DNA of 16,129 nt from a virus: UHGV virus genome UHGV-0120322; one strand, 5' to 3'. Made by a program: the position numbers and the translations under genes. The notes below the pieces were generated by a model. That model ran no database searches and had not been told where the DNA came from. It worked only from the letters and a program-made list of their open reading frames with translations. Positions 1,441 through 9,461 of this stretch are shown piece after piece. How positions within the stretch are numbered: position 1 is the stretch's first letter; every line of letters starts with the position of its first letter.

Positions 1441-1690
1441 GGTTACCTCTGCTTTTTGAACGCATGTCACGTAACTTCTTAATGTGTTCTGCCGTTTCGA
1501 TCTCTTCTGCTATCCGATCTGCATCAGCTTTATTCACAGGTTCAAAGTCATGATTAAAGCGGAACATGCTGGCGATACATGTTCTGCCTTTTCGGATGTA
1601 GTGAACTTTGTTGTGGGTAGAACGCAGGATTTTGCAGGGAGTGCCGTGGTGGTCGACGTACCAGGTGTTAGGGTAAATCACTCTGAACAT
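1412..1690 (-). CDS. Hypothetical small phage protein (92 aa)
   Basis: ORF in tight head-to-tail overlap with xis and the upstream gene, typical of phage early-left accessory operons; no family recognised. Confidence 0.5.
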   Translation of the reverse strand: MFRVIYPNTWYVDHHGTPCKILRSTHNKVHYIRKGRTCIASMFRFNHDFEPVNKADADRIAEEIETAEHIKKLRDMRSKSRGNHGIIQPHTR

Positions 1691-2003
1691 TCTTGACCTT
1701 GTGTTGTGCGGATTGATATTCAGTGCTGATATTCACCTTTATAGCGAACACCTTTACCGGTTTATCGCCAAAGTGTGGATGTGTGATTGTCTTCACTTCA
1801 TATCCGTCATACGGAACATCAATTCTGCGACTGGAATCGTCGCGCTTCGGATATCCCTTTGTGATAATCAGGCGGTCATACTCCCGGAACATAATTCGCT
1901 TATTCCAATAGTCATTACACAGGCGATACTCCTCCGTTTTCTCTCCGCGAATCATGGCATCGAAAAATTCACTTTTAACAGGAAGTTGCAGGTTAGCCAT
2001 CAC
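1668..2003 (-). CDS. Hypothetical phage protein (111 aa), possibly ASCH/PUA-like fold
   Basis: ORF with 4-nt ATGA overlap to the upstream TraR-like gene; motif FFDAMIRGEKTEEYR is reminiscent of ASCH-type domains (weak recognition only). Confidence 0.5.
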   Translation of the reverse strand: MMANLQLPVKSEFFDAMIRGEKTEEYRLCNDYWNKRIMFREYDRLIITKGYPKRDDSSRRIDVPYDGYEVKTITHPHFGDKPVKVFAIKVNISTEYQSAQHKVKNVQSDLP

Positions 2004-2221
2004 TTAATCCCCCTTTGTTTGCGGATAAGCTCCAGATCTTGCTGGCAACTGGCGCAAGTTCGACAACCCTGAACGGCTAGGCGTCTTCGTTCATCTATCG
2101 GATCACCACACTCACAACAATGAGTGGCAGATACAGCCAGGTGGTTCAGGCGGCGCATTTTTATTGCTGTGTTGCGCTGTAATTCTTCTATTTCTGATGC
2201 TGAATCAATGATGTCTGCCAT
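2000..2221 (-). CDS. TraR/DksA-family C4 zinc-finger protein (73 aa)
   Basis: CxxC...(17 aa)...CxxC spacing (CCECGDPIDERRRLAVQGCRTCASC) characteristic of TraR/DksA C4 zinc fingers; common in lambdoid early-left regions. Confidence 0.7.
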   Translation of the reverse strand: MADIIDSASEIEELQRNTAIKMRRLNHLAVSATHCCECGDPIDERRRLAVQGCRTCASCQQDLELIRKQRGIK

Positions 2222-2273
2222 CTTCCATTAATCCCTGAATTGTTGGTTAATACGCTTGAGGGTGAATGCGAAC

Positions 2274-2300
2274 AATAAAAAAGGAGCCTGTAGCTCCCTG
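2274..2300 (-). terminator. Candidate intrinsic terminator for leftward transcription (stem GGAGC/GCTCC followed by U-run on minus strand)
   Basis: Minus-strand reading CCTCAGGGAGCTACAGGCTCCTTTTTTATTG: GC-rich hairpin plus T6 tract, in the 98-bp gap between two minus-strand genes. Confidence 0.45.
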
Positions 2301-2319
2301 AGGATTTTGCTTTTCATGT

Positions 2320-2601
2320 TCACCGTTCCTTAAAGGCGCCGTTTAACATACCGATTGCCAGACTTAAATGAGTCGGTGTGAATCCCATCAGCGTTACCGT
2401 TTCGCGGTGCTTCTTCAGTACGCTACGGCAAATGTCATCGACGTTTTTATCCGGAAACTGCTGTCTGGCTTTTTTGATTTCAGAATTAGCCTGACGGGCA
2501 ATGCTGCGAAGGGCGTTTTCCTGCTGAGGTGTCACTGAACAAGCCCCATGTCGGCAAGCATAAGCACACAGAATATGAAGCCCGCTGCCAGAAAAATGCA
2601 T
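2320..2601 (-). CDS. Hypothetical protein at the lambda orf61 position (93 aa from first ATG; true start may be internal)
   Basis: ORF directly downstream of the orf63-like gene; Cys/His-rich N-terminus without clear RBS, so start uncertain (in-frame GTG at codon 23 is an alternative). Confidence 0.45.
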   Translation of the reverse strand: MHFSGSGLHILCAYACRHGACSVTPQQENALRSIARQANSEIKKARQQFPDKNVDDICRSVLKKHRETVTLMGFTPTHLSLAIGMLNGAFKER

Positions 2602-2611
2602 TCAGTGGTTG

Positions 2612-2803
2612 TCATACCTGGTCTCTCTCATCTGCTTCTGCTTTCGCCACCATCATTTCCAGCTTTTGTGAAAGGGATGCGGCTAACGTATGAAATTCTT
2701 CGTCTGTTTCTACTGGTATTGGCACAAACCTGACTCCAATTTGAGCAAGGTTATGTGCCATCTCAATACTCGTTCTTAACTCAACAGGAGATGCTTTGTG
2801 CAT
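2612..2803 (-). CDS. Lambda orf63-like small protein (63 aa)
   Basis: 63-aa ORF with strong SD (GGGAGG 5 nt upstream of ATG); same size and position (second gene downstream of exo) as lambda orf63. Confidence 0.6.
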   Translation of the reverse strand: MHKASPVELRTSIEMAHNLAQIGVRFVPIPVETDEEFHTLAASLSQKLEMMVAKAEADERDQV

Positions 2804-2964
2804 ACCGCCTCCCGTTTATTATTTATCTTCTCAGCCAGCCGCTGTGCTTTCAGTGGATTTCTGATAACAGAAAGGCCGGGAAATACCCAGCCTCGCTTTG
2901 TAACGGAGTAGACGAAAGTGATCGCGCCTACCCGGATATTATCGTGAGGATGCGTCATCGCCAT
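2776..2964 (-). CDS. Lambda orf60a-like small protein (62 aa), start overlaps the 3' end of exo
   Basis: ORF starting 10 nt inside the end of exo with GGGGAG SD-like sequence; position equivalent to lambda orf60a. Confidence 0.4.
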
Positions 2965-3635
2965 TGCTCCCCAAATACAAAACCAATTTCAGCCAGTGCC
3001 TCGTCCATTTTTTCGATGAACTCCGGCACCATCTCGTTAAAACTCGCCATGTACTTTTCATCCCGCTCAACCACGACATAATGCAGTCCTTCACGCTTCA
3101 TACGCGGGTCATAGTTGGCAAAGTACCAGGCATCTTTTTGTGTCACCCACATGCTGTACTGCACCTGGGCCATGTAAGCCGATTTTATGGCCTCGAAACC
3201 ACCGAGCCGGAACTTCATGAAATCCCGGGAGGTAAACGGGCATTTCAGTTCAAGGCCGTTGCCGTCACTGCATAAACCATCGGGAGAGCAGGCGGTGCGC
3301 ATACTTTCGTCGCGATAGATGATCGGGGATTCAGTAACATTCACGCCGGAAGTGAACTCAAAGAGGGCTCTGGCGTCGTTCTCGTACTGTTTTCCCCAGG
3401 CCAGCGCCTTAGCGTTAACTTCCGGAGCCACACCGGTGCAAACCTCGGCAAGCAGGGTGTGGAAGTAGGACATTTTCATGTCAGGCCACTTCTTTCCGGA
3501 GCGGGGTTTTGCTATCACATTGTGAACTTCTGAAGCGGTGATGACGCCGAGCCGTAATTTGTGCCATGCATCATCCCCCTGTTCGACAGCTCTCACGTCG
3601 ATCCCGGTACGCTGCAGGATAATGTCCGGTGTCAT
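2955..3635 (-). CDS. exo: Lambda exonuclease, Red-alpha (226 aa), full length
   Basis: Translation [40 protein letters not shown]... recognised as essentially identical to phage lambda Exo over its full length. Confidence 0.97.
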
Positions 3636-4417
3636 GCTGCCACCTTCTGCTCAGTGGCTTTCTGTTTCAGGAATCCAAGAGCTTTCACTGCTTCGGCCTG
3701 TGTCAGTTCTGACGATGCGCGAATGTCGCGGCGAAATATCTGGGAACAGAGCGGCAATAAGTCGTCATCCCATGTTTTATCCAGGGCGATCAGCAGAGTG
3801 TTAATTTCCTGCATGGTTTCATCGTTAACCGGAGTGATGTCGCGTTCCGGCTGACGTTCTGCAGTGTATGCGGTATTTTCGACAATGCGCTCGGCTTCAT
3901 CCTTGTCATAGATACCCGCAAATCCGAAGGCCAGACGGGCACACTGAATCATGGCTTTATGCCGTAACATCCGTTTGGGATGCGACTGCCACGGTCCGGT
4001 GATTTCTCTGCCTTCGCGGGTTTTGAATGGTTCGCGGCGGCATTCATCCATCCACTCGGTAACGCAGATCGGATGATTGCGGTCTTTGCGGTAAATCCGG
4101 CATGTGCAGGATTCGTTGTCCTGTTCAAAGTTCATGCCGTCAAACTGCTGGTTTTCGTTGATGATGCGGGACCAGCCATCAACGCCCACCACCGGAACGA
4201 TGCCGTTCTGCTTATCAGGGAAGGCGTAAATTTCTTTCGTCCACGGATTAAGGCCGTACTGGTTGGCGACGATCAACAATGCGATGAACTGCGCATCGCT
4301 GGCATCACCTTTAAATGCCGTCTGGCGAAGAGTGGTGATCAGTTCCTGTGGGTCGACAGAATCCATGCCGACACGTTCAGCCAGCTTCCCAGCCAGCGTT
4401 GCGAGTGCTGTACTCAT
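3632..4417 (-). CDS. bet: Lambda Bet, Red-beta single-strand annealing protein (261 aa), full length
   Basis: Translation [59 protein letters not shown]... recognised as lambda Bet; ATGA overlap with exo. Confidence 0.97.
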
Positions 4418-4422
4418 CCGTT

Positions 4423-4533
4423 TTATACCTCTGAATCAATATCAACCTGGTGGTGAGCAATGGTTTCAACCATGTACCGGATGTGTTCTGCCATGCGCTC
4501 CTGAAACTCAACATCGTCATCAAACGCACGGGT
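4423..4533 (-). pseudogene. gam: gam fragment: only the C-terminal ~36 codons of lambda Gam ([36 protein letters not shown]) are present
   Basis: C-terminal 36 aa match lambda Gam; the N-terminal 48 aa of the 84-aa ORF (4423..4677) are unrelated and encoded antisense to P; junction at about 4531-4534. Confidence 0.85.
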
Positions 4534-5137
4534 ACAACAGGTAGCGCAGATCATCAATGGTGTGTTCAGCCAGTTACTGGCAACTTTCCCGGCGAGCCTG
4601 GCTAACCGGGACCAGAACGAACTGAACGAAATCCGCCGCCAGTGGGTTCTGGCTTTCCGGGAAAACGGGATCACCACGATGGAACAGGTTAACGCAGGAA
4701 TGCGCGTAGCCCGTCGGCAGAATCGACCATTCCTGCCATCACCCGGGCAGTTTGTTGCCTGGTGCCGGGAAGAAGCATCCGTTACCGCCGGGCTGCCAAA
4801 CGCCAGCGAGCTGGTTGATATGGTTTACGAGTATTGCCGGAAACGTGGCCTGTATCCAGATGCAGAGTCTTATCCGTGGAAATCAAACGCGCACTACTGG
4901 CTGGTTACCAACCTGTATCAGAACATGCGGGCCAATGCGCTGACTGATGCGGAATTACGGCGCAAGGCTGCCGATGAACTGGCCTGTATGACAGCGCGAA
5001 TTAACCGTGGTGAGGCGATACCTGAACCAGTAAAACAACTTCCTGTCATGGGCGGGAGACCGCTTAATCGTGTTCAGGCTCTGGCGAAGATCGCAGAAAT
5101 CAAAGCGAAGTTTGGGCTGAAAGGAGCAAGTGTATGA
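4532..5137 (+). pseudogene. peaD: Replication protein P, 5'-truncated (lacks about the first 30-40 codons and its own start/RBS); equivalent to peaD of DLP12
   Basis: Frame translates as [30 protein letters not shown]...KAKFGLKGASV, matching lambda P from about residue 33 to the C-terminus; no ATG or SD at the 5' end. Confidence 0.9.
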
Positions 5138-5427
5138 CGGGCAAAGAGGCAATTATTCATTACCTGGGGACTCATAAGAACTTCTGTGCGCAGGACGTTG
5201 CCGCGGTAACAGGCGCAACAGTAACCAGCATAAATCAGGCTGCGGCTAAAATGGCGCGGGCAGGAATCTTGGTCATTGATGGTAAGGTCTGGCGAACGGT
5301 GTATTACAGATTCGCTACCAGGGAAGAACGGGAAGGAAAGGTGAGCACTAACCTGATTTTTAAGGAGTGTCGCCAGAGTGCCGCGATGAAGCGGGTGTTG
5401 ATGGTTTGGGGGAGGGTAGGGGTATGA
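5134..5427 (+). CDS. ren: Ren (lambda Ren homolog, 97 aa)
   Basis: MTGKEAIIHYLGTH...VTSINQAAAKMARAG...VWRTVYYRFATREEREGK recognised as lambda Ren; ATGA overlap with P stop. Confidence 0.9.
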   Translation: MTGKEAIIHYLGTHKNFCAQDVAAVTGATVTSINQAAAKMARAGILVIDGKVWRTVYYRFATREEREGKVSTNLIFKECRQSAAMKRVLMVWGRVGV

Positions 5428-5624
5428 GCATGATGGATTTCGCAGAAACTAAAAAGGCTATCGACGCCATCACAACCGACTGGTCTATCCGAGGACCGTA
5501 TCACGAAGACGACGGGAAATATTACGCCTTGCTTCGTGGAGAGTGGGTTGGTGGCGGGTATATCGGAAAACGGAAAGCCCTTGATGCCATTCTCGAAAAG
5601 TTAATCCAGGAGGCCGCCCAATGA
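5424..5624 (+). CDS. Hypothetical small phage protein (66 aa), nin-region equivalent
   Basis: ATG with GGGAGGGTAGGGG upstream, ATGA overlap with ren stop; in frame with ORF-track entry 5367..5624. Confidence 0.55.
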   Translation: MSMMDFAETKKAIDAITTDWSIRGPYHEDDGKYYALLRGEWVGGGYIGKRKALDAILEKLIQEAAQ

Positions 5625-5851
5625 GCAACATCGACAAACCAATGACAAACCGTGAACTGGTGGATGCCGCCATTGAATTGGCCGGAGAGTTTTATGCGAT
5701 GCAGGGCTATTCGCATCGTCCTGGCTTCAAGTATTGGCAATCTCCGCACCCGCATGAGCGCCTGTGCTTTGAAATGGCTTGTGTGGCATTCGAAACCATT
5801 CGCGGCTCAGATGTAATGGACGCCGTATCTGAGTTGGAGGATGAAGAATGA
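5621..5851 (+). CDS. Hypothetical small phage protein (76 aa), N-terminus MSNIDK
   Basis: AGGAGG SD 7 nt upstream, ATGA overlaps on both sides (translational coupling). Confidence 0.55.
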   Translation: MSNIDKPMTNRELVDAAIELAGEFYAMQGYSHRPGFKYWQSPHPHERLCFEMACVAFETIRGSDVMDAVSELEDEE

Positions 5852-5964
5852 GCAACATCGACAAACGCGCATTACGTGAAATCGCTGAGGCAGCAGTTGG
5901 TGCACATGAGCGCCTTAGTGTTATGCCGCCTGATGACATTTTCGATATCTCACTGGCAGAATGA
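5848..5964 (+). CDS. Short ORF (38 aa) with MSNIDK N-terminus; probably the N-terminal part of a larger gene interrupted by in-frame TGA at 5962-5964
   Basis: GGAGG SD 7 nt upstream of ATG; same reading frame as the 5965..6261 ORF, which has no SD or ATG of its own. Confidence 0.4.
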   Translation: MSNIDKRALREIAEAAVGAHERLSVMPPDDIFDISLAE

Positions 5965-5991
5965 ACTCAGCTTGATGCAGATATCACTGCC

Positions 5992-6261
5992 TTGAACGCG
6001 CTGAACTCCGCAGCCAACCCAGCCACAGTGCTGGCGCTGCTGGATGAGCTGGAAGCCAAAGACCAGAGGATTGCTGTGCTGACCGAATCGCTCAAGCAGA
6101 CGGTTTCAGGATACAAATCCTGCCTGCGTACCGGACATGAGCGCATTCTTGACCTTGGCGGTGACTGTGACGCGCCCAAAGTGATGATTGCAGGCAATCC
6201 TGACATTCAGCAGGCGCAGAAGCTGATCGCCGCCGCATCCGGTAAAGGAGAGGCATCATGA
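5992..6261 (+). CDS. Hypothetical phage protein, C-terminal part; frame open from 5965 and contiguous with 5848..5964 across a single TGA
   Basis: ORF-track entry with TTG start and no SD; 3' end overlaps the next gene start (ATGA), so it sits in a translationally coupled chain. Confidence 0.5.
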   Translation: MNALNSAANPATVLALLDELEAKDQRIAVLTESLKQTVSGYKSCLRTGHERILDLGGDCDAPKVMIAGNPDIQQAQKLIAAASGKGEAS

Positions 6262-6821
6262 GCACTATTACCAAACAATGGCTGCAGCAGAAAATTGCCG
6301 ACATGGAAGCAGCCAGAGATGAAATCCCGTTCGGTCTGGACGAAGGCGACAGCAACACGCTGGCGGCACTGCGTATCGCGCTGGCATCGCTCGAAGCGGA
6401 GCCTGCCATTCACCGGTGGCGTCGTGTGACCTCTGAGCCATACGGCCCCTATCCTTGGCATTATGGTGATTTTATCGGCTTCTCAAAGCCCGTTGATGGG
6501 ATTGAGGATGAGTATTTTTACTCCGCCCCGCCAGAGCCAGCCAATGCCGAAACCGTAGCCTGGCTGTGGTCACACAGGAAACACCCGAGCGAAGTCACGC
6601 TTGTTCGCCCTGAAGATGATGAGAGAGCGGAGGGTGCTCACTGGTCTGGCTGGAGTTGTCAGGCGCTTTATGCAGCACCGCCAGTTCCGGTATCTGTGCC
6701 CACATTCGAGAAATGGTGTGAGTTGACTGAGCAGAAACCTGTCGGATGGGTGCGTGATGCTATGAAAGAAGCGTATGACGGATGCCGCGACGCCATGCTT
6801 CAGGGTGCCGAAAAAGCCTAG
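6258..6821 (+). CDS. Hypothetical phage protein (187 aa)
   Basis: AAGGAG SD upstream of ATG; ATGA overlap with upstream ORF; no family recognised. Confidence 0.6.
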   Translation: MSTITKQWLQQKIADMEAARDEIPFGLDEGDSNTLAALRIALASLEAEPAIHRWRRVTSEPYGPYPWHYGDFIGFSKPVDGIEDEYFYSAPPEPANAETVAWLWSHRKHPSEVTLVRPEDDERAEGAHWSGWSCQALYAAPPVPVSVPTFEKWCELTEQKPVGWVRDAMKEAYDGCRDAMLQGAEKA

Positions 6822-6833
6822 TCGCCCACCACC

Positions 6834-7064
6834 ATGCAGACCGCGCCAGCCCTAGATTCTTCGCCAAAAATTTCCGAGTCGCCCGTCAGCAACTCTCCGG
6901 TGATTCCGGATGGTTGGGTGCTGGTTCCTAAGGAGCCAACTCCAGAAATGCGTGAGGCGTACCATCAGGCGCAGGAAGAGTGTGAAGATGGCGGTGGATT
7001 ATGGAGCCCAGACCACCAATGGAAGGCCATGATCGCAGCAGCACCGCAGCAGGAGGCGAAGTGA
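6834..7064 (+). CDS. Hypothetical ORF (76 aa) in the same frame as 6258..6821, separated only by a TAG and four sense codons; possibly a 3' extension of that gene
   Basis: No SD upstream of the ATG; same frame as the preceding gene. Confidence 0.4.
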   Translation: MQTAPALDSSPKISESPVSNSPVIPDGWVLVPKEPTPEMREAYHQAQEECEDGGGLWSPDHQWKAMIAAAPQQEAK

Positions 7065-7115
7065 TTATGTCGTGACAGCATAATTGCGATGTCAACGATA
7101 AGCAGAGGTTTGAAA

Positions 7116-7310
7116 ATGAAATCACAATCACCAGTGCAGCATGAAGTTAACATCGACGGCAAAGAGTATGTTGTCACAGTAGTCCAAACCGGCAAGTCAA
7201 CGTGGAGGGCATGGGGAGATTCCTGGGGGCGCCATATAGTCGAAACAGGTTCTAGCGAACATAGCGCGCTTTCTCATTGGAAAGCAAAAGCTTTAGTTAT
7301 GAATGGGTAG
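7116..7310 (+). CDS. Hypothetical small protein (64 aa), start at MKSQSPVQ
   Basis: GAGGT SD 6 nt upstream of ATG at 7116; the earlier ATG at 7089 has no SD. Confidence 0.5.
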   Translation: MKSQSPVQHEVNIDGKEYVVTVVQTGKSTWRAWGDSWGRHIVETGSSEHSALSHWKAKALVMNG

Positions 7311-7333
7311 CGCGGAAACTTTGAAGGTATAAT

Positions 7334-7359
7334 CCCCTCAAATAATCGAGGGGGTTTTT
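7334..7359 (+). terminator. Hairpin CCCCTC-N8-GAGGGG followed by TTTTT; intrinsic terminator or attenuator immediately abutting the next start codon
   Basis: GC-rich 6-bp stem plus T5 run; a perfect TATAAT hexamer sits at 7328-7333 just upstream; the 3' arm doubles as the only SD-like sequence for the 7360 ATG. Confidence 0.5.
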
Positions 7360-7869
7360 ATGTCTGGTTGGGATAACGGTATAGATGCAGTTTCTGCGAT
7401 TGCAGCTATCGCATCTGCGGTAGCAACTTATTTAGCATGGCGATCCTCAGAAGCTAGCAGGGCCACATCCGAAAAAGCTTTGCAGTTGCAAGGAAAGCAG
7501 TATTTGTACGAGACATTAAAAGCTTGCGCTGAGAGAGCGAATTCATACTCAAAAGGAAAGAAAGGGGCTGACTGGAGCTTTCATGACGCAGCCAATATTG
7601 TTCGATGTTTGAACATGGCAATGGGGAGCATAATAAATTACTCAGATACCAACAATCAGGATGCAATGAAAGGTCTGAAGCAATTCTTTATTAGCCAATT
7701 AAACATGGAGCTTTTTGAAGAGCTCAACTATGAGGTTGGGCCTGATGCCTTCTTTCACGGAGAGGAGCTAACCAGCATGACGAGCGATATTTACTCGCAG
7801 TGGTTAAACATTATTTCATTCTTTAACCTCATGATTGTCACAGATGATGACCTCGCCGATGAAACATAG
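7360..7869 (+). CDS. Hypothetical AT-rich moron protein (169 aa) with an N-terminal hydrophobic helix (IDAVSAIAAIASAVATYLAW)
   Basis: Long ORF with visibly lower GC than the flanking nin genes, its own upstream hairpin and TATAAT; no family recognised. Confidence 0.65.
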   Translation: MSGWDNGIDAVSAIAAIASAVATYLAWRSSEASRATSEKALQLQGKQYLYETLKACAERANSYSKGKKGADWSFHDAANIVRCLNMAMGSIINYSDTNNQDAMKGLKQFFISQLNMELFEELNYEVGPDAFFHGEELTSMTSDIYSQWLNIISFFNLMIVTDDDLADET

Positions 7870-8056
7870 CTTGATTGATTTTCCATAATCAACCCGCCAT
7901 AATCATGTCATCGGAGCCTGAACAACTCCGGTGACTTCTGCGCTAAACGGGGACGTTTATGCGCACATACAATCCAAACTCTCTTCTCCCTTCACAGATG
8001 CAGAAATGCACCTGCAATTCTTTGCATCTAGCGTTTGACCTCTGCGGAGGTGAAGC

Positions 8057-8512
8057 GTGAACCTCCCACAAGACGGTATCAAATTGCATCGCGGTAACTT
8101 CACCGCTATCGGTCAGCAGATCCAGCCTTATCTGGAGGACGGAAAATGCTTTCGCATGGTGCTTAAACCGTGGCGCGAGAGACGCAGTCTTTCCCAGAAT
8201 GCACTCAGCCACATGTGGTACAGCGAAATCAGCGAATACCTCATCAGCAGGGGGAAAACGTTCGCTACTGCAGTATGGGTAAAAGATGCACTCAAACACA
8301 CTTATCTCGGTTATGAAACCAAAGAACTGGTTGATGTCGTAACCGGTGAAATCACCACCATTCAGTCATTACGTCATACCTCCGATCTCGATACCGGAGA
8401 GATGTATGTCTTCCTGTGTAAGGTTGAAGCCTGGGCGATGAATATTGGCTGCCACCTGACTATTCCGCAGAGCTGCGAGTTCCAGCTGCTGCGCGACAAG
8501 CAGGAGGCGTAA
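8057..8512 (+). CDS. ybcN: YbcN-like protein (151 aa; DLP12 DNA base-flipping protein family), GTG start
   Basis: Translation [19 protein letters not shown]... recognised as YbcN of DLP12; GGAGG SD upstream of GTG. Confidence 0.85.
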
Positions 8513-8682
8513 TGACTACACCGCTTATTCGTGTCATGAACGGACACATCTACAGAGTACCAAATCGTCGTAAGCGTAAGCCTGAGCTGAAGCCATCCGA
8601 AATACCAACACTGCTAGGGTATACCGCCAGCCTGGTTGATAAAAAATGGTTGCGACTGGCAGCAAGGAGGAATCATGGCTGA
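8512..8682 (+). CDS. ninE: NinE family protein (56 aa)
   Basis: Translation [56 protein letters not shown], basic NinE-type protein; TAATG overlap with ybcN; not in ORF track because under 60 aa. Confidence 0.8.
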   Translation: MTTPLIRVMNGHIYRVPNRRKRKPELKPSEIPTLLGYTASLVDKKWLRLAARRNHG

Positions 8683-8965
8683 TTTGAGAAAAGCAGCGCG
8701 TGGTCGGGAATGCCAGGTAAGAATCCCTGGCATATGTAATGGCAACCCTGAAACGTCTGTACTGGCACATATCCGGCTGGCTGGATTGTGCGGCACCGGT
8801 ACCAAACCGCCAGACCTGATTGCCACCATTGCATGTTCTGCCTGTCACGATGAGATCGACCGTCGCACGCATTTTGTTGACGCTGGATATGCAAAAGAAT
8901 GCGCGCTGGAAGGTATGGCGAGAACACAGGTTATGTGGCTGAAAGAGGGGGTTATTAAGGCGTGA
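8675..8965 (+). CDS. ybcO: YbcO-like protein (96 aa; DUF1364, Cys-rich putative nuclease)
   Basis: Start at [37 protein letters not shown]... with AAGGAGG SD; recognised as YbcO of DLP12. Confidence 0.85.
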
Positions 8966-9324
8966 ATACCTACAGCATCACATTACCCTGGCCTCCGAGC
9001 AATAATCGCTATTACCGCCATAATCGCGGGCGCACGCACGTCAGCGCAGAGGGACAGGCATACCGCGATAACGTCGCTCAAATCATTAAAAACGCAATGC
9101 TGGATATCGGCCTGGCTATGCCAGTGAAAATCCGCATTGAGTGTCACATGCCGGATCGCCGTCGCCGTGACCTGGATAATCTGCAAAAAGCCGCTTTTGA
9201 CGCACTCACCAAAGCAGGTTTCTGGCTGGATGATGCTCAGGTCGTTGATTATCGCGTTGTGAAGATGCCCGTTACCAAAGGTGGGAAGCTGGAGCTGACC
9301 ATCACTGAACTGGGAGATGAATGA
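8962..9324 (+). CDS. rusA: RusA Holliday-junction resolvase (120 aa)
   Basis: Translation [37 protein letters not shown]... recognised as RusA; GTG start overlapping ybcO stop. Confidence 0.95.
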
Positions 9325-9461
9325 TGTTTGAGTCTTATATGGCAGAACTTCTTCGCCACCGTTGGATGCGCCTGCGCTTATATCGTTTCCCCGGTTCTGT
9401 TTTGACCGATTACCGGATACTGAAAAATTACGCCAAAACGCTGACAGTAACAGGCGTATGA
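9321..9461 (+). CDS. ylcG: YlcG-like small protein (46 aa)
   Basis: [46 protein letters not shown]; ATGA overlap with rusA stop; recognised as DLP12 ylcG. Confidence 0.7.

Follow-up and report, generated by a model that had tools for sequence, protein, structure and literature searches.

A probable recent nonsense mutation divides a mosaic accessory gene in the nin region of a defective lambdoid prophage

The viral genome UHGV-0120322, a stretch of 16,129 nucleotides (nt) that is referred to here, at its full length, as the window, contains two open reading frames (ORFs) that share one reading frame and are separated by a single TAG codon. Comparison with related prophages indicates that the two ORFs are the halves of one 268-codon accessory gene in the nin region of a lambdoid prophage, and we consider it very probable that the TAG arose by a recent GAG→TAG nonsense mutation, in the course of the ordinary decay of a dispensable prophage accessory gene. 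The placement in the nin region, already proposed in the initial annotation of the window, agrees with the gene order, which reads P, ren, three small ORFs, an ead/Ea22-like gene, the 268-codon gene, two ORFs, ybcN, ninE, ybcO, rusA, ylcG and Q, with the gene lying between ren and ybcN/ninE/rusA/Q.

The upstream ORF (187 codons; 6258-6821, plus strand) begins at ATG 6258, which is preceded by a good Shine-Dalgarno (SD) sequence, aaaggagaggcatcATG, and it supplies the 5′ part of the gene (codons 1-187) as far as the premature TAG (6819-6821) at codon 188. The next four codons are sense codons (TCG CCC ACC ACC), after which ATG 6834 opens a 76-codon ORF that continues in the same frame to TGA 7062-7064. 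The initial annotation had described this layout exactly, and its statement that the 76-codon ORF has no SD sequence was borne out as well: the anti-SD duplex energy of the 20 nt upstream of ATG 6834 is +0.2 kcal/mol, which amounts to essentially no complementarity, compared with -6.8 to -11.8 kcal/mol at the real starts nearby and a median of -2.5 for all ATGs in the window. A promoter scan for an independent start of the 76-amino-acid (aa) ORF gave nothing above shuffle expectation. ATG 6834 lacks a ribosome-binding site because it is the pre-existing codon for an internal methionine, Met193, of the 268-aa protein. The orphaned 3′ part as a whole (codons 189-268 plus TGA; 6822-7064, plus strand), recognized by its identity to intact alleles, encodes a spacer rich in S, P and T and a conserved C-terminal module (VIPDGWVLVPKEPTPEM...AAAPQQEAK). 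In relatives, RefSeq lists the 187-aa product as hypothetical protein WP_162721248.1, with no pseudogene flag, and leaves the 76-aa ORF without annotation; the latter has been called elsewhere as a separate protein (e.g., BBP27362.1).

Intact alleles were identified by megablast, with window positions 6100-7320 as query, against 5,426 complete Escherichia coli genomes. The whole query was spanned by 24 records at ≥98.9% identity, and reciprocal searches were made with 81-mers centred on codon 188, in a TAG version and a GAG version. The GAG version, which encodes Glu188, was matched exactly in 21 of the 24 records and the TAG version in three, from two strains (two assemblies of 2018-06-4CC, and EH08-18-36). 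In both GAG records that were checked, SF-468 and 23AR0885, one intact coding sequence of 807 nt and 268 aa is annotated (WP_060710351.1 and WP_050488089.1, respectively), and across the 807 nt of the gene the window differs from SF-468 by one base, that which makes TAG of GAG, the remainder being 100% identical. The initial annotation had named, as the case that would speak against it, relatives in which the 187-aa gene ends at the same position and is followed by an unrelated gene; the relatives have the opposite, one continuous 268-aa gene. Exact-sequence look-up in a collection of 15 billion proteins placed the 268-aa protein on 217 contigs and other variants of the same length on 103, 39 and 33; the exact 187-aa product was found on 60 contigs, and the 76-aa ORF was called on 67. 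From the alignment and the 81-mer searches, the TAG (6819-6821, plus strand) is the derived, minority allele, produced by a G→T transversion at 6819 in an ancestral GAG codon, and the two ORFs are the halves of a single 268-codon gene. What was found at the site is the pattern of a nonsense allele: a sense codon and collinear, intact orthologues in the relatives, a downstream ORF that is the intact C-terminus without signals of its own, and a stop that is derived and limited to one haplotype.

A second premature stop lies on the same haplotype. The adjacent upstream gene, an ead/Ea22-like pseudogene (PF13935; 5848-6261, plus strand) whose own stop codon overlaps the start of the 268-codon gene (ATGA), is broken by TGA 5962-5964 at codon 39, as the initial annotation had also noticed, and RefSeq flags the gene as having an 'internal stop' in relatives. 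The intact form of this gene scores 83 bits against PF13935, where the cut-off is 27, and strain 23AR0885 retains an unbroken copy (139 aa). The lesion is a G→T change, GGA→TGA; of 59 records, 11 have the TGA 81-mer and 47 the GGA 81-mer, and the TGA is likewise the derived form. A G→T transversion thus underlies each of the two stops (GGA→TGA, GAG→TAG), but two cases are too few to point to a mutational cause such as oxidative damage. Every TAG record also has the ead TGA, with the TAG clade nested within the TGA clade of 11 records, and the ead stop must therefore have come before the TAG. At the 10 TAG loci recovered through the exact-protein look-up, the DNA matches the window at every base of 5848-7320 (1473 nt), a one-base indel in a run of G (7225) excepted. 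Since the rest of the gene is identical to intact alleles and the TAG loci, that indel aside, are identical to one another, the TAG lesion is young and belongs to one haplotype.

This haplotype was found in different prophage contexts. One is an apparently complete prophage at thrW in strain 2018-06-4CC; because the TAG is present there, it did not necessarily originate in a defective element. Another is the arrangement of the window itself, which recurs in a metagenome scaffold (L008) that is 100% identical over 14.8 kb. In a third (L007 and L014), the integrase-proximal region runs directly into the 3′ part of the ead pseudogene; these two loci represent a sister haplotype that is 100% identical to the window save for a further 4.5-kb deletion, equivalent to window positions 1513-6016, and they stand for a later stage in the same decay series. 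A mismatch map showed that positions 5181-9044 of the window, a tract that includes both stops, have 0-2 differences from the thrW-site prophage (L005, L006, L009), and that the flanks of this tract are ∼5% diverged, with 33 mismatches in 4537-5180 and 19 in 9045-9440. The tract is a recombination tract or a recently shared module that has moved both stops between prophage backgrounds. This agrees with an earlier report of exchange between temperate phages and defective prophages (PMC3945230).

The window copy of the gene resides in a defective prophage. When the window was compared by blastn with the thrW prophage (L004), a deletion junction was located at 4531-4534, where partial gam (minus strand) is joined, with a 4-nt overlap, to part of the replication gene P (plus strand): the window up to 4534 corresponds to L004 up to 13596, and the window from 4531 onward corresponds to L004 from 18432. 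What is missing relative to L004 (13597-18431) comprises kil, the repressor, a cro-like gene, ydaT and O, and the immunity and replication region has therefore been lost. The same gam'-'P arrangement is present in L008, with a 191-aa Phage_lambda_P fragment. The promoters pL and pR would also be gone from the window copy, and because the immunity region and, by this reasoning, pL and pR are gone, the nin genes of this copy are probably unexpressed and free of selection. The prophage occupies a site of the DLP12 type, with the intD integrase beside the sfm fimbrial genes and fimZ (seen in L007 and L008), and it carries genes of the DLP12 type, namely ybcN, ninE, ybcO, rusA, ylcG, Q, an OmpC/NmpC-like porin gene and lysis genes.

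Homologues of the intact protein also cover the stop site. With the 268-aa protein as query, 4408 homologues were found, many of them in Enterobacter, Salmonella and E. coli spanning 100% of the 268 aa as a single polypeptide, and in their alignment the residues that flank the stop site are contiguous (e.g., ...AMLQGVENAETPTTMQTAPALDSSPKI...GNSPVIPDGW). The alignment shows that the family is strongly mosaic, with variable modules linked by conserved junction peptides (ALASLEAEP, AAPPxPVSVP, CRAAMLQGA[D/E], GNSPVIPDGW and a terminal AAAPQQEVK), which in the window are found at 6378-6404, 6663-6704, 6780-6812, 6888-6917 and 7035-7061, and which look like joints for module shuffling by homologous recombination. 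Some members have, between CRAAMLQGAE and GNSPVIPDGW, an optional spacer rich in S, P and T (xAE[S/T]PTTMQTAPALDSSPKI..ESP); in the window, TAG stands where this spacer would open with Glu, and ATG 6834 encodes a Met inside the spacer, which places the TAG at a module junction of a mosaic protein. Profile matches run through the same site, as phrog_60 is matched by residues 1-267 in one stretch across it (E 3.8e-26). The C-terminal module, or 76-aa ORF, matches phrog_12449, phrog_5913, phrog_60 and phrog_17860; for three of these four PHROGs, it is the C-terminal end of the profile that is matched. The AlphaFold2 model of the 268-aa protein is poor overall (mean predicted local distance difference test score, pLDDT, 52.5), with a confidently predicted N-terminal helical hairpin (residues 1-47), a C-terminal two-helix module (218-265; pLDDT 68-86), and a linker (178-216; pLDDT <50) that includes the stop site. 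The suggestion of the initial annotation that the downstream peptide echoes the C-terminal region of the upstream one, as a repeated module, did not hold up: the best local alignment score, 41, was reached in 140 of 2000 shuffles (p≈0.07), and BLASTP of the two supposed echo segments alone gave a marginal match (E=0.003, 7/24 identities).

Searches with the whole 268-aa protein returned no Pfam match at E≤0.1, no NCBIfam or PADLOC match, no match to the hidden Markov models of PF13935 (Ead/Ea22-like) or PF04448 (DUF551), and nothing convincing in a PDB profile search (best E=0.1). The central segment (HRWRRVTSEPYGPYPWHYGDFIGFSKPVDGIEDEYFYSAPP...WSGWSCQALYAAPP; window 6408-6710, residues ∼51-150) is almost invariant among the homologues from Enterobacteriaceae; it is a conserved module with a pLDDT below 50 and no family-library match. 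No sequenced phage in INPHARED has the gene in full, the highest coverage of a 1.6-kb query being 15%, and only modules are held in common with them, for example with mEp213, mEp043 and mEp390. Natural members of the family with fewer modules exist as proteins of 148-188 aa (P0035, P0037, P0080), and among homologues with the same N-terminal modules, some have DUF551 (PF04448) as an alternative C-terminal module or bear the name ead/Ea22-like. Ea22 genes have been described as mosaic, with interchangeable C-terminal domains that include DUF551 (Goddard et al., 2024, PMC10834534). The 268-aa protein resembles Ead/Ea22-type proteins in that its homologues are built of exchangeable modules, some ending in DUF551, but differs from them in that its gene sits in the nin region, not in the exo-xis region, and in lacking a Pfam match.

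Lesions of other kinds are scattered over this gene and its neighbours in related prophages. The 268-aa gene is frameshifted in P0125 (34 contigs) and P0133, and in P0128 (350 aa) loss of its stop codon has fused it with the frame of the next ORF. In E. coli S51 (L015), a 566-bp deletion, equivalent to window positions 6605-7170, joins codon ∼116 in frame to a downstream ORF of 64 codons, and the fusion product is listed in RefSeq as a 160-aa hypothetical protein (WP_064638497.1). Two further fragments (P0138 and P0148), from contigs of chromosome size, end in ...PTPEMR, which suggests another premature stop at the next GAG codon (Glu232; window 6951-6953). Upstream, a 76-aa gene (phrog_4132) is annotated as frameshifted in 23AR0885 (L003 2521-2752, equivalent to window 5621-5851), the lineage that has both ead and the 268-aa gene unbroken. 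Different lineages break different genes of the cluster. The 64-codon ORF itself (7116-7310, plus strand) has an SD sequence with an anti-SD energy of -6.8 kcal/mol; it is without annotation in RefSeq relatives and is called by other pipelines, and in 2018-06-4CC (L001, L009, L011) it is frameshifted by the loss of one G at 7225, in a run of G at 7221-7225. This ORF had no PADLOC or NCBIfam match, and an overlapping frame of 73 codons (7089-7310) had no Pfam or PHROG match. Beyond it, a terminator-like hairpin (7331-7356), with a 9-bp stem and a run of T, stands directly upstream of the start of a 169-codon ORF (7360-7869; phrog_1779), and overlaps the strong SD region of that ORF.

The sequence of events that best accounts for these observations begins with the G→T nonsense mutation in ead, followed on the same haplotype by the G→T transversion at codon 188 of the 268-codon gene, which turned GAG (Glu) into TAG and was probably neutral or close to it. 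Ribosomes starting at the SD-equipped ATG 6258 would then stop after residue 187, at the beginning of the low-complexity spacer that is predicted to link the body of the mosaic protein to the conserved C-terminal module of ∼55 residues, and little or none of that module would be produced. The double-stop haplotype has since travelled, within the identical tract of 3.9 kb, to more than one prophage background, among them the defective DLP12-site prophage of the window. Genes of the phage lambda nin region are dispensable for lytic growth, as the phenotype of the nin5 deletion shows, and for this reason inactivating mutations in the region would be tolerated; the 268-codon gene occupies the same position as the lambda nin genes, between P/ren and Q, although it is without a counterpart in lambda itself. 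The initial annotation had offered relaxed selection and stop-codon read-through as alternative interpretations. The former is well supported for the nin region, in that both stops are derived minority forms, independent lesions occur elsewhere and the prophage is defective, and the truncation is probably selectively neutral; the latter is not supported, as discussed below.

No observation speaks directly against this interpretation, but several set limits to it. The TAG haplotype is not rare, being found on 60 contigs, in 120 indexed collection blocks, and in at least three or four prophage contexts, and one of these contexts is an apparently complete prophage with a single annotated pseudogene, so that the truncated allele is tolerated, and might conceivably be favoured, in functional phages. 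The stop falls exactly at a module boundary, and truncation takes away only the spacer and the C-terminal module, so that the 187-aa product may stay functional and 'pseudogene' may overstate its condition. Finally, the argument of the initial annotation, that two neighbouring genes each broken by a stop exceed what chance would give under intact selection, is fair as reasoning, and the excess of stops is suggestive of an absence of purifying selection, but it falls short of significance: a stop results from 4.1% of random substitutions in this pair of genes, so that at least two nonsense changes in a set of 10 have a probability of 0.06, and the substitutions on the lineage are so few that a test of neutrality is underpowered.

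The first of these points would also fit a selected truncation, in which the lysogen benefited from shedding the C-terminal module, and Ead with it, if for instance the complete proteins carry a cost or are toxic. The presence of the double-stop haplotype on ∼60 contigs and in several prophage contexts, including the apparently intact prophage, would agree with such selection, as would the repeated disruption of the 268-aa gene in other lineages. However, neutral decay predicts the scattered frameshifts, deletions and stop-loss equally well, the haplotype lies within a 3.9-kb identical tract whose spread may reflect hitch-hiking or clonal expansion, and intact alleles are still in the majority; we regard selection for truncation as improbable.

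A functional division of the gene is, in our judgement, slightly less probable again. Ribosomes that stop at the TAG would, on this proposal, reinitiate at ATG 6834, 12 nt beyond it, and the body of the protein and its C-terminal module would be made as two functional polypeptides. Termination followed by reinitiation over short distances without an SD sequence does occur in E. coli, the start lies only four codons past the stop, and the split falls at a module junction in a linker that is predicted to be disordered, in a family that is highly modular and has natural members with fewer modules (P0035, P0037, P0080). The two-ORF layout is nevertheless seen in one young haplotype only, the relatives being single-cistron; the ATG is an internal Met codon already present in the intact gene, without an SD sequence, rather than a new start, and RefSeq does not annotate the 76-aa ORF. 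Taken together, the proposition that the TAG locus is a snapshot of gene fission with both products functional or, in a weaker variant, that the truncation is adaptive for the lysogen has only a small chance of being correct.

Programmed read-through of the TAG, at a useful frequency and yielding both a 187-aa and a 268-aa product, seems to us very improbable. As in the UGA read-through that yields the A1 protein of phage Qβ, the in-frame stop is followed by an open, coding extension in the same frame, here one that encodes an intact, conserved C-terminal module, and the adjacent ead gene likewise has an in-frame stop. The frame after the TAG is open, however, because the mutation is young, with zero other differences from an intact allele. 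In contrast to programmed read-through, the stop in the window is a derived minority allele without conservation: GAG stands in its place in 21 of 24 near-identical alleles, and the aligned distant homologues have a sense codon there or run on contiguously. Neither a stimulatory structure, a recoding element nor a suppressor was found, since no stable RNA structure follows the TAG (minimum free energy z=+0.36 for 6800-6920), Rfam gave no match at E≤1 in 5000-8000, and ARAGORN finds no transfer RNA, and so no suppressor, in the window. Moreover, the stops in the two adjoining genes differ as codons (TGA in ead, TAG here) and arose at different times. An error of sequencing or assembly, which might have been considered given that one base alone separates the TAG allele from intact alleles, can be dismissed, as assemblies made independently and from separate sources agree on the base at no fewer than 10 loci, among them a metagenome scaffold and complete genomes from two strains, and the 187-aa product is encoded on 60 contigs.

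A recent nonsense mutation in a decaying accessory gene is therefore the explanation we retain; the feature is real, and its explanation is ordinary. Cryptic and defective lambdoid prophages of E. coli K-12, such as the DLP12, Rac and Qin remnants, contain pseudogenes with nonsense and frameshift mutations. The prophage of the window is like DLP12-type remnants in its site and its similar genes, in the loss of immunity, and in the point, indel and deletion lesions of its accessory genes. It is unlike them in that the lesion is very young, the downstream part of the gene still being perfect, and in that the same lesion is also present in an apparently complete thrW prophage.

The importance of the finding lies mainly in annotation, because WP_162721248.1 (187 aa) and the 76-aa entries are fragments of one 268-aa protein, and are best regarded as a truncated allele or a pseudogene. 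The locus provides no evidence for recoding in E. coli prophages. If the gene had instead undergone fission, it would show how the modules of mosaic phage proteins of the Ea22/DUF551 type turn into separate genes. As an instance of ordinary decay, it offers a small, clean case of stepwise prophage degeneration, with two successive G→T nonsense mutations, then a frameshift in a run of G in one sub-lineage and large deletions in another, in which the decayed segment can be followed as it moves between prophages as what appears to be a 3.9-kb recombination tract.

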